From Myxococcota bacterium (lineage in GTDB: Bacteria; Myxococcota_A; UBA9160; UBA4427), in NCBI GenBank assembly GCA_965250285.1, contig OZ252299.1, forward strand, positions 1,184,001 to 1,248,000: 64,000 nucleotides of DNA, written 5' to 3'. Shown here one piece after another: positions 18,691 to 29,068 of this stretch. The translations under genes were made by a program, and so were the position numbers. The number at the start of each line of letters is the position of its first letter. Position 1 is the stretch's first letter. The notes below the pieces were generated by a model. That model made no database searches. It saw only the letters and a list, made by a program, of their open reading frames with translations, and was not told the origin of the DNA.

Positions 18691-19881
18691 ATGGCCAAGG
18701 AGAAGTTCGAGCGGACGAAGCCCCACGTGAACGTGGGAACGATCGGACACGTTGACCACGGCAAGACGACGCTGACGGCAGCGATCACGCAGCGGCAGGC
18801 TGCGAAGGGTCTGGCGGATCAGATGCGTTTCGACCAGATCGACAAGGCGCCGGAGGAGCGCGAGCGCGGTATTACGATCGCGACGGCGCACGTCGAGTAC
18901 CAGACCGAGGGTCGCCACTACGCGCACGTCGACTGCCCCGGCCACGCGGACTACGTGAAGAACATGATCACGGGTGCCGCTCAGATGGACGGCGCGATCC
19001 TGGTGGTGTCGGCAGCCGATGGCCCGATGCCGCAGACGCGCGAGCACGTTCTGCTGGCTCGCCAGGTGAACGTTCCGTACATCGTGGTGTTCCTGAACAA
19101 GGTGGATCAGGTCGACGACGAGGAGCTGCTCGAGCTGGTCGACATGGAGATCCGCGAGCTTCTGAACGGCTACGAGTTCCCGGGCGACGACATCCCGATC
19201 ATCCCGGGCTCGGCGCTGAACGCGCTCGAGGATCCTTCGAACGACGAGAACAACAAGTGCATCGATGATCTGATGGATGCGCTGGACGCGACGATCCCCG
19301 AGCCTGAGCGTGCTCTGGACAAGGACTTCCTGATGCCGATCGAGGACGTGTTCTCGATCACGGGCCGCGGGACGGTTGTGACGGGCCGCATCGAGCAGGG
19401 CGTGATCCACACGGGTGATGAAGTCGAGATCGTGGGCATCAAGGACACGACGACGACGACGATCACGGGCGTGGAGATGTTCCGGAAGCTCCTCGATGAG
19501 GGTCAGGCGGGCGACAACGTGGGCTGCCTGCTTCGCGGTACGGCGAAGGAAGAGGTGGAGCGCGGTCAGGTTCTGGCCAAGCCCGGCTCGATCACGCCGC
19601 ACACGAAGTTCAAGGCTCAGGCGTACATCCTGACGAAGGACGAGGGTGGTCGTCATACGCCGTTCTTCAACGGGTACCGGCCGCAGTTCTACTTCCGGAC
19701 GACGGACGTGACGGGCGTCGCGAACCTTCCGGACGGGACGGAGATGGTGATGCCGGGCGACAACGTCGAGATGACGGTGGAGCTGATCACGCCGATCGCG
19801 ATGGACAAGGAGCTTCGGTTCGCCATCCGTGAGGGTGGCCGCACCGTCGGCGCCGGCGTCGTCGCCGAGATCATCGAGTAA
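18691..19881 (+). CDS. tuf: Elongation factor Tu (str-operon copy)
   Basis: Protein identical to the copy at 1764-2954. Confidence 0.99.
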
Positions 19882-19979: not shown

Positions 19980-20294
19980 ATGGCTGACGCAACGGCAAAG
20001 ATTCGCATTCGCATGAAGGCGTTCGACTACAAGCTGCTCGATCAGAGCGCGGGCGAGATCGTCGACACCGCCCTTCGGACGGGTGCGCGCGTGGCGGGGC
20101 CGATCCCGCTGCCGACGGACATCAACAAGTACACCGTGCTGCGTGGCCCGCACATCGACAAGAAGTCGCGGGAGCAGTTCGAGGTGCGCACCCACAAGCG
20201 CCTGATCGACATCCTCGATCCGACGCCGCAGACGGTGGATGCGCTGATGAAGCTCGAGCTCGCCGCGGGTGTCGACGTGGAGATCAAGCTGTAG
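19980..20294 (+). CDS. rpsJ: 30S ribosomal protein S10
   Basis: [37 protein letters not shown]. Confidence 0.98.
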
Positions 20295-20296
20295 CC

Positions 20297-20947
20297 ATGG
20301 CGAACATCGACGTCGTCAACATGAAGAATGAGAAGGCGGGCTCCGTCGAGCTGGCCCCGGCCGTGTTCGAGGCCGAGGTCAAGGAGCACCTCTTTCATGC
20401 CGAGGTGCGGCGACAGCTCGCTCTGCGCCGCGCGGGTACGCATGCGACCAAGAACCGCGCGCTGGTGTCGGGCGGCGGTGCGAAGCCGTATCGCCAGAAG
20501 GGCACGGGCCGCGCCCGGCAGGGTACGACGCGTGCGCCGCAGTTCGCCGGTGGTGGTGTGGTCTTCGGCCCGGTGCCGCGTGCGTACGACCACAAGCTGC
20601 CCAAGAAGGTGCGGGCCGCTGCGCTGAAGAGCGCGCTCTCGCTGCGCCAGGGCGAAGGGGCCATCAAGGTCGTCGACGCCTTCGACGTGCCCGAGTTCAA
20701 GACGAAGCAGATCGTCGCGATGCTCGAGGCGCTCGGCGTGGCCGGCCAGAAGACGCTGATCGTGAGCGCCGAGCCGAACGTGCAGCTCGAAGCGTCGGCC
20801 CGCAACATCCCGGGCGTATCGGTGATCCGAGCCGAGGGCCTGAACGTGTACGACGTGCTCCGACACGGCCAGCTCGTGCTCGCGCAGGACGCCGTCGCCG
20901 CACTGACTTCGCGGTTCGATCGCAAAGCTGCGGGAGAGGAGGCCTAG
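20297..20947 (+). CDS. rplD: 50S ribosomal protein L4
   Basis: [22 protein letters not shown]. Confidence 0.98.
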
Positions 20948-24314: not shown

Positions 24315-24683
24315 ATGATCCAGCCCGAATCCACACTGCAGGTCGCAGACAACTCCGGCGCGCGCAAGGTCAAGTGCATCCGCGTGCTGGGTGGCTCGAA
24401 GCGCAAATTCGCTTCGGTCGGCGACATCATCGTGGTCGCCGTCAAGGAGGCGATCCCGAACGGCCGCGTCAAGAAGGGCGACGTGCGCCGGGCGGTCATC
24501 GTCCGAACCAAGAACGCGATCAATCGCCGCGACGGCTCGCACATCCAGTTCGATGAGAACGCCGCCGTGCTGATCAACAACGAGAAGGAAGTGGTGGGGA
24601 CACGCATTTTCGGTCCCGTCGCGCGAGAGCTGCGCGGCGCGGGTTTCATGCGAATCGTGTCCCTGGCGCCGGAGGTCCTCTGA
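24315..24683 (+). CDS. rplN: 50S ribosomal protein L14
   Basis: [26 protein letters not shown]. Confidence 0.98.
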
Positions 24684-24684
24684 G

Positions 24685-25227
24685 ATGAATCCGAGGCTCC
24701 AGACCAGATACCGCGAAGAGGTGGTGCCGAAGCTCAAGGACGAGTTCGGTTACGCCAACCCTCATCAGGTGCCGAAGGTCGAGAAGGTCGTGATCAACAT
24801 GGGCCTGGGCGAGGCCGCCCAGAACCCGAAGATCATCGACCGCGCGCTCGAGGAGCTGGCCCAGATCACCGGCCAGCGCCCCGTCGTGCGTCGCGCGACG
24901 AAGAGCGTCTCGAACTTCAAGCTGCGCGAAGGGCAGGCCATCGGCTGCATGGTGACCCTGCGCGGTGCACGTCAGTGGGAGTTCCTGGATCGCCTGATGA
25001 GCGTTGCGCTGCCGCGCGTGCGCGACTTCAGCGGCGTGTCGGCGCGGGCCTTCGATGGCCGCGGCAACTACACGCTCGGGCTGAAGGATCAGACGATCTT
25101 TCCTGAAGTCGACTATGACGCCGTCGAGCGCACCACGGGCATGAACGTGAGTGTGGTGACGACGGCGAAGACGGATGCCGAAGGGCGAGCGCTGCTCACC
25201 CATCTCGGTATGCCGTTCCGTAAGTGA
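24685..25227 (+). CDS. rplE: 50S ribosomal protein L5
   Basis: [21 protein letters not shown]. Confidence 0.98.
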
Positions 25228-25237
25228 GGATTCGACC

Positions 25238-25636
25238 ATGATGACCGATCCGATCGGTGACATGCTGACCCGCATCCGCAATGCGGGTTCGGTCAAGCAC
25301 GCCGCGACGTCGTGCCCGAGCTCGAAGCTGAAGCTCTCCATCGCCAAGGTGCTGAGCGATGAGGGGTTCATCTCCGACTACTCGGCCGAGCCCGGCGACA
25401 ACAACAAGACGACGCTCCACCTGACGCTCCGCTACACGGACTCGGGCGATCACATGATCGATGAGATCCACCGTGTGTCGAAGCCGGGCTGCCGGGTGTA
25501 CGTCGGCTCCAACGAGATCCCCAAGGTGCGCAACGGCCTCGGCATGGCCGTGCTGTCCACCTCGAAGGGGGTGATGTGCGATCGAGACGCCCGCGAACAG
25601 AAGGTGGGCGGCGAGATCCTCTGCGAGGTCTGGTAG
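25238..25636 (+). CDS. rpsH: 30S ribosomal protein S8
   Basis: DPIGDMLTRIRNA, STSKGVM, GGEILCEVW. Confidence 0.97.
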   Translation: MMTDPIGDMLTRIRNAGSVKHAATSCPSSKLKLSIAKVLSDEGFISDYSAEPGDNNKTTLHLTLRYTDSGDHMIDEIHRVSKPGCRVYVGSNEIPKVRNGLGMAVLSTSKGVMCDRDAREQKVGGEILCEVW

Positions 25637-27250: not shown

Positions 27251-27688
27251 ATGTTGGATCGACTCAGCCCCAACGCCGGATCCCGCAAGCCGCGCAAGCG
27301 CGTCGGCCGAGGTCCCGGTTCGGGCAAGGGAAAGACCTGCGGGTCGGGCGTGAAGGGGCAGGGCACCCGCTCGGGTGGCAACACCCCCGCCTGGTTCGAA
27401 GGCGGACAGATGAATCTGCTGCAGCGCGTACCGAAGCGCGGCTTCACGAACATCTTTCGCAAGGACACCGAGGTGGTGAACGTCGGTGCGCTCGCGGTGT
27501 TCGGTGACGGCGCGACGGTGGACGCGAAGGCACTCGCCGAGCGCGGTCTGATCCGTGGCTCGGGTTGCGCCGTGAAGCTGCTCGGCGAGGGCGATGCCCC
27601 GAAGAACCTGACGGTCAAGCTCGATCGCGTGAGCGCTGGTGCGCGCACGAAGATCGAGTCGGCCGGCGGTACGGTGGAGCTGGTCTAG
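27251..27688 (+). CDS. rplO: 50S ribosomal protein L15
   Basis: RVGRGPGSGKGKT, FEGGQ, PKRGF. Confidence 0.98.
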   Translation: MLDRLSPNAGSRKPRKRVGRGPGSGKGKTCGSGVKGQGTRSGGNTPAWFEGGQMNLLQRVPKRGFTNIFRKDTEVVNVGALAVFGDGATVDAKALAERGLIRGSGCAVKLLGEGDAPKNLTVKLDRVSAGARTKIESAGGTVELV

Positions 27689-27723
27689 TGCCCGTTCGTC
27701 GGTTGAACATGGAGTGGGTCTAG
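27688..27723 (+). CDS. Putative coupled mini-ORF 1 (MPVRRLNMEWV)
   Basis: GTG overlaps the rplO TAG; its own TAG overlaps the next GTG; translation not demonstrated. Confidence 0.4.
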   Translation: MPVRRLNMEWV

Positions 27724-27757
27724 TGCCCGGTCGTCGCCTGAACATGGAGTGGGTCTA

Positions 27758-27758
<1 letters not shown>
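27723..27758 (+). CDS. Putative coupled mini-ORF 2 (MPGRRLNMEWV)
   Basis: GTG overlaps the mini-ORF1 TAG; its own TAG overlaps the secY GTG; translation not demonstrated. Confidence 0.4.

Positions 27759-29064
<1,306 letters not shown>

Positions 29065-29068
<4 letters not shown>

Follow-up and report, generated by a model that had tools for sequence, protein, structure and literature searches.

A likely reinitiation relay built from two diverged junction copies between rplO and secY in a Myxococcota bacterium

The rplO and secY genes of a Myxococcota bacterium are separated by a 70-nt insert that probably consists of two diverged tandem copies of the junction between these genes. The insert likely persists as a reinitiation relay that has kept secY translation coupled to that of rplO, with selection acting on the geometry of the relay. 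It lies in a 64,000-nt stretch of DNA (the window), within a ribosomal-protein cluster with the gene order rpmD, rplO, secY, adk. The features of the junction are listed below.

27251..27688, plus strand: rplO, 50S protein L15 (TIGR01071, E 1.5e-45)
27675..27691, plus strand: original junction block, comprising the rplO tail, GGAG (27676-27679) and TAG/GTG; copy 1 of 3 of a 17-nt direct repeat
27688..27723, plus strand: mini-ORF of unit 1, VPVRRLNMEWV and stop; the 35-nt unit spans 27688-27722, with GGAG at 27711-27714
27723..27758, plus strand: mini-ORF of unit 2, VPGRRLNMEWV and stop; the 35-nt unit spans 27723-27757, with GGAG at 27746-27749
27749..27751, plus strand: second GTG in the secY frame, 9 nt upstream of GTG 27758, opening an ORF at 27749..29068
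27758..29068, plus strand: secY, preprotein translocase, start GTG 27758 (TIGR00967, E 1.4e-126)

Each unit is an 11-codon ORF, and successive ORFs share one base from rplO through unit 1 and unit 2 to secY. The rplO stop codon TAG occupies 27686-27688, and its last G doubles as the G of the unit-1 GTG at 27688. The secY GTG at 27758 overlaps the unit-2 TAG in the same manner and aligns with residue 1 in relatives. A GGAG resembling a Shine-Dalgarno (SD) sequence is present 8 nt 5' of all three GTGs (27676-79, 27711-14 and 27746-49). The first-pass annotation had described this stop/start relay of two 35-nt units, and its coordinates, GGAG motifs and three differences between the units were all borne out. 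The units are identical at 32 of 35 positions and differ at position 8 (GTT/GGT, Val/Gly), position 15 (CGG/CGC, synonymous) and position 16 (TTG/CTG, synonymous). The 17-nt direct repeat begins at 27675, 27710 and 27745, with the original block 15/17 identical to the other two copies, and the two-unit array is the top-scoring tandem repeat of the window (score 139). Contigs of three metagenome runs (X1, X2 and X3) cross the whole cassette with 0 differences; these runs belong to a single study, and the source sample is possibly among them. The secY frame is open upstream to the GTG at 27749, which arose from a change in the unit tail at positions 28-29. Since this codon overlaps the GGAG, it is probably not the secY start in use.

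The surrounding S10-spc cluster has an unusual gene content. It is without rplC (rpsJ abuts rplD at 20294-20297 of the window), rplX (rplN abuts rplE, 24683-24685) and rpsN (rplE abuts rpsH, 25227-25238); one distant match each was found in the genome for L3 (C1:4836625), L24 (C1:6234099) and S14 (C1:5397926). Two 396-codon ORFs with identical short repeats at equal offsets (1764-2954 and 18691-19881) are probably two tuf copies.

The 35-nt unit is most likely a tandem duplication of the rplO-secY junction, as judged from its resemblance to both flanking genes. The repeat register continues into these genes: unit positions 1-23 read as a diverged copy of the secY head, and positions 24-35 as a copied rplO tail, with 10/12 positions identical in each unit. 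Over the opening 35 nt of secY, unit 2 agrees at 22/35. When compared with a head-plus-tail junction duplicate constructed in silico, unit 1 matches at 24/35, unit 2 at 26/35, and the unit of a related metagenome locus (L033) at 29/38. For secY head positions 4-23, unit 1 matches at 11/20 (empirical P 0.013), unit 2 at 13/20 (P 0.0012), and the L033 unit has a P of 0.0045; the empirical P is the share of window 20-mers that reach the match (1.3% for unit 1 and 0.12% for unit 2). Constrained originals at the ends and drifted, free copies in the middle are what a tandem junction duplication predicts. The regeneration of GGAG before each start, on which the first-pass annotation remarked, is real, but it follows automatically, as does TAG/GTG, because the junction itself was duplicated, and therefore it is no evidence of design.

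The arithmetic of copy length determines what such a duplication produces. A length of 2 mod 3 creates a relay ORF, 0 mod 3 creates an N-terminal extension, and 1 mod 3 creates wrong-frame read-through. A hypothetical 37-nt copy, possible via a 5-nt sequence common to both genes, would open a 364-codon wrong-frame ORF over secY. The unit itself appears to be confined to this locus. No further copy of either unit exists in the 6.25-Mb genome, where the next-best match is 24-25/35, and so the search for the unit at other gene junctions, proposed earlier as a check, found a single locus. There was no match to the unit among 72,556 plasmids and no exact 21-mer of it in viral contigs; among 185,579 GTDB genomes, the sole exact 21-mer match sits in an unrelated Neobacillus sequence. 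A CRISPR-like reading of the array was rejected, as the 'spacers' are 16/19 alike.

The ancestral state of the junction is a direct overlap. A first set of GTDB relatives (41 genomes searched, 35 with matched secY, 30 loci fetched including our own) and a second set from the family (68 searched, 60 matched, 30 loci fetched) gave 43 distinct relatives. All 43 have direct junctions with the unit absent, the rplO-secY gap being -4 in 34, -1 in three, 0 in four and +1 in two. A member of the same genus (G001) carries the same TAG/GTG with no insert. Two relatives, G009 (L017/L038) and G082 (L051), have rplO C-terminal extensions of 11 and 31 codons beyond the match, and the extended rplO still ends at -4 or +1 from the secY start, so that these are geometry-keeping insertions.

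Close relatives differ in the number of units. Four loci came from scanning metagenomes with a secY-start motif: three are without the unit, and L033 has a single 38-nt unit encoding VIARGMHIMELV followed by a stop, with the frame intact and the last 12 nt identical to the rplO tail. Eight metagenome runs were also compared, and the junction was readable in X1-X4, X6 and X7, with none for X5 and X8 among the pieces listed. Two units are present in X1-X3. In X4, from another study and 98% identical, 35 nt are skipped, leaving one unit; this comes from one contig at depth 4.6, in which an exact repeat could conceivably have collapsed. No unit is present in X6 (95% identical). X7 contains an L033-type strain whose unit differs from that of L033 at 1 of 21 nt read. 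The first nine letters of the X7 contig, at its loose end, resemble what we take to be the end of a sequencing adapter; only the 21 L033-matching nt were used, and the idea of a different 5' flank of the unit was dropped. Copy number thus ranges over 0, 1 (35 or 38 nt, frame kept) and 2. A six-sequence tree groups the two unit carriers, this genome and L033 (SH-aLRT 92.9, UFBoot 90). The AU test does not reject trees without this sisterhood (p 0.125 and 0.098), and for that reason two unit origins are possible; from the sequences, a single origin is favoured, not proven.

The body of the unit has diverged about as fast as synonymous sites. Between this genome and L033, 36 of 128 fourfold sites differ in the flanking genes, and 9-10 of 35 sites differ between units along with one 3-nt indel (9/35 versus 36/128, Fisher p 0.83). 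The flanking proteins retain 204 of 209 residues (5/209 differ), whereas the unit peptides share only 5 of 11, and hence the peptide is not what selection keeps. A functional mini-ORF peptide was rejected on this ground; the peptides are also too short for family searches. The earlier observation that two of the three unit differences are synonymous stands for this genome, but a synonymous bias does not extend across species, where only 5 of 11 peptide residues agree.

The start, GGAG and stop sites present a different picture, as none has changed. By hand tally, 14-18 substitutions all miss these eight sites (P 0.008-0.023). Without GGAG, the conservation of start and stop sites is not significant (P 0.11-0.17), and a single comparison of this genome with L033 gives p 0.07-0.11 for the kept sites. 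In a lineage with 9-11 changes, the chance of gaining an internal stop is about 21-24%. The indel, a CAT/CATCAT slip, is inherently in frame, and the comparison of the two-unit and 38-nt forms involves only two unit lineages. Conservation of the tail could also reflect fresh copying of the rplO tail through repeated duplication and deletion. Taken with these limits, the comparison offers modest evidence of apparent selection on relay geometry, with start, GGAG, stop and frame intact. The notion of a coupling-preserving cassette, put forward in the first-pass annotation, gains support in that the 43 relatives have direct junctions, start, GGAG and stop are retained against a drifting background, and the -1 relay is preserved at both observed unit lengths (35 and 38 nt); a frame-breaking length, which would have counted against it, was not among them.

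Junction duplication is not restricted to rplO-secY. Custom gene calls gave 5119 genes, and mini-ORF chains bridge 151 of 2031 short co-directional gaps; since 200 shuffles give 112 (maximum 129), most of these bridged gaps are due to chance. A strict test for duplicated junctions (at least 18/24 identity, 1146 junction tests) yielded 20 rows, which represent 19 loci; control runs gave 0.2 each, a value that is somewhat low since only draws of the same overlap type were counted. By length mod 3, the 19 loci divide into 13 relay-making, four in-frame and two frame-breaking (chi-square p 0.004 versus uniform). Relay-making lengths thus account for 13/19 (p 0.002 versus 1/3), and coupling-preserving lengths for 17/19 (p 0.024). 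Each duplicated junction uses its own local sequence, which indicates that a process recurs, not an element. One array, near C1 4687631 on the minus strand, has three 41-nt units forming 14-codon ORFs with -4 overlaps that bridge two genes, and is a younger, larger case of junction duplication. Single duplicated junctions with relay ORFs are found near C1 1102877, 4302270, 582851, 1337652 and 3420751, with lengths of 35, 26, 83, 77 and 80 nt, respectively. Four of the duplicated loci were looked up in G001, and the two that were readable (near 1102877 and 4302270) are without the duplicate there. A 43-nt duplication near C1 5104362 (minus strand) is of the frame-breaking class and an exception to the length rule.

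The junction has no special RNA structure. The 141-nt region folds like its shuffles (z -0.05), the unit ends do not pair in predicted folds, Rfam has no match at E<=1, and no sigma-70 promoter-like or terminator-like site was found in 27400-27900. A hairpin between the rplO tail and unit 1 has a z of -1.57, and the zero-unit junction of G001 gives -1.72. The predicted opening costs of the starts at 27688, 27723 and 27758 are 20.1, 12.8 and 14.9 kcal/mol, with genome medians of 14.9 for overlapped and 10.7 for stand-alone genes (300 sampled per class). The unit-1 start is at the 88th percentile and is predicted to be occluded, and the secY start is at the 50th percentile for overlapped genes. 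On this model, the first start would need rplO translation, and the later two would be ordinary. Relatives' secY starts are not unusually occluded either (median 13.5 kcal/mol over 32 loci, versus 14.9 for overlapped genes here). A fresh duplicate would cost 23.3 versus 17.9 kcal/mol for a zero-unit junction with 30 nt of upstream context, and 19.0 versus 20.6 with 60 nt; the extra closure is not robust, because it is lost with the longer context. Two selective accounts of the unit mutations were rejected: 65%, 80% and 38% of 300 random mutants leave the secY start as open as observed, and 18-73% of 250 random mutants leave the first start as closed. The two RNA-labelled runs listed contained only 0.06 of the words.

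A plausible course of events begins with the direct rplO-secY overlap. One duplication of about 12-14 nt of rplO tail plus 23-24 nt of secY head would then have occurred, probably before this species and L033 split from their common ancestor. The copy would restore GGAG and TAG/GTG by itself and form a relay if its length is 2 mod 3. The internal copy then diverged at roughly the rate of synonymous sites and picked up one 3-nt indel, without loss of start, GGAG, stop or frame. The unit may later have doubled in the lineage of this genome, or a two-unit form may have contracted in X4. Ribosomes finishing rplO would reinitiate at 27688, 27723 and 27758, with the peptides as by-products. Published work in its accessible parts agrees with such a dependence on geometry. 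A gap of about 20 nt nearly abolishes reinitiation, which needs an overlap or a very short gap (PMC10666635), and on that account coupling would be lost across a bare 69-nt gap. Of 14 overlapping pairs tested, 13 were strictly coupled (PMC6728339), and removal of the leader stop codon leaves minimal downstream translation in bicistronic designs (bioRxiv 10.1101/2023.02.09.527918). Short ORFs that serve only ribosome delivery have been proposed for MIRUs (PMC12548453) and are used in those bicistronic designs.

The same duplication could also have left a neutral relic, with secY initiating de novo at its own GGAG and GTG, the mini-ORFs dispensable and selection limited to the last SD and start. 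De novo initiation is possible since a GGAG precedes the secY start by 8 nt and this start is of median accessibility; it is even predicted to be more open with the units (14.9) than at an in-silico zero-unit junction (17.9 kcal/mol). Unit drift at the synonymous rate and the lack of significance for start and stop conservation alone would fit as well, as would chance, given that one third of duplication lengths make a relay and shuffles account for 112 of the 151 relay-bridged gaps. What makes this account unlikely is that the unit-1 GGAG and TAG and both units' GTG are intact though they do not adjoin secY, that both unit lengths keep the frame, and that relay-making lengths dominate genome-wide (13/19). 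The unit has moreover outlasted about 28% fourfold-site divergence, although direct repeats permit clean excision. If the relay is nevertheless selected, the number of units could itself be the target, setting SecY relative to ribosomal proteins, with the ratio shifted by each additional reinitiation step or SD. Such tuning was suggested in the first-pass annotation, and its support is limited to the 0/1/2 variation among close relatives, which slippage between direct repeats explains equally well. The unit is retained at an essential, highly expressed junction, and a tail change in the lineage of this genome makes the predicted pairing of the SD with secY codons less stable. We nonetheless regard such a rheostat as improbable: random mutants do as well as the observed units in opening the secY start or closing the first, similar duplications occur at 18 unrelated junctions, and a single unit lineage stands against 43 genomes without units.

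A mobile element of MIRU or MITE type, inserted at the secY start and harmless because it restored coupling, would account for the layout, which is as described for MIRUs in the accessible text of PMC12548453, and would make the 17-nt repeat a target duplication. The unit middle is only 55-65% like the secY head. That resemblance is nevertheless in register and beyond chance, the other duplicated junctions are each made of their own local sequence, and the unit occupies a single genome locus and gave no match in the plasmid and viral collections, its one exact 21-mer match among GTDB genomes being the Neobacillus sequence. The tiny insertion element once considered for this site is consequently very improbable, as the unit is built from the local junction. 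An assembly or sequencing artefact is hardly credible; tandem repeats are prone to misassembly, but three sites distinguish the copies, three runs have contigs that cross the cassette with 0 differences, and homologous units are present in L033, X4 and X7. The preferred reading therefore remains a duplicated junction kept as a relay. A broader proposal is doubtful, namely that relay mini-ORFs keep arising by junction duplication and are filtered by selection for frame geometry, and that at rplO-secY such a relay has become an obligatory 0/1/2-step link that resets SecY per operon transcript.

Should the relay be both translated and required, what looks like a noncoding gap would be kept solely for its reading-frame geometry, its sequence being otherwise neutral. 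Junction duplication would also offer a simple route to ribosome-delivering small ORFs without a mobile element, even within the conserved spc operon. The 0/1/2-unit alleles, with units of 35 and 38 nt, provide a ready test of termination-reinitiation, and if the obligatory link is true, they would be a natural allelic series in which the efficiency of each reinitiation step could be measured at an essential gene. For annotation, it would be wrong to take the 11-codon ORFs for functional peptides, and 27749 is a start that gene callers may mistakenly assign to secY.

Our literature search, in which subscription journals were thinly covered and supplements lay outside the scope, turned up no description of repeats or mini-ORFs at rplO-secY, nor of relays made by junction duplication. 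Several known systems are similar in part. MIRUs, according to the accessible text of PMC12548453, are likewise short repeats at gene starts, with an ORF stop overlapping the downstream start and variable copy number. They form one sequence family over many loci, are described as mobile and have -4 overlaps, whereas the unit here is single-locus, junction-derived and joined by -1 TAG/GTG overlaps. It occurs as two tandem copies only and, being secY head plus rplO tail with no related copy found elsewhere, it is neither foreign to its site nor evidently mobile; the multiple dispersed copies typical of IS or MITE families are also absent from the genome. Termination-reinitiation pairs (PMC6728339, PMC10666635, as far as accessible) resemble the relay, in which every step has a -1 overlap and an SD within the upstream ORF. 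In its ancestral form the rplO-secY junction belongs to this -1/-4 type, with 37 of the 43 relatives at -4 or -1 and six at 0 or +1. The GGAG in the 3' end of each upstream ORF, a feature typical of coupled pairs but not obligatory, is judged here by motif alone. The difference lies in three consecutive -1 overlaps through two non-conserved 11-codon ORFs, and in coupling that is predicted here from the sequence. The bicistronic design (bioRxiv 10.1101/2023.02.09.527918, accessible part) shares a short leader cistron with an internal, downstream SD and a 1-nt stop/start overlap. Its leader is engineered and has its own strong, independent first SD, whereas the relay described here is natural and duplication-born, and its leader is fed by the upstream gene, the unit-1 start overlapping the rplO stop. 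The functional principle is thus already known from MIRUs and bicistronic designs, and the surprise offered by the rplO-secY relay is moderate.
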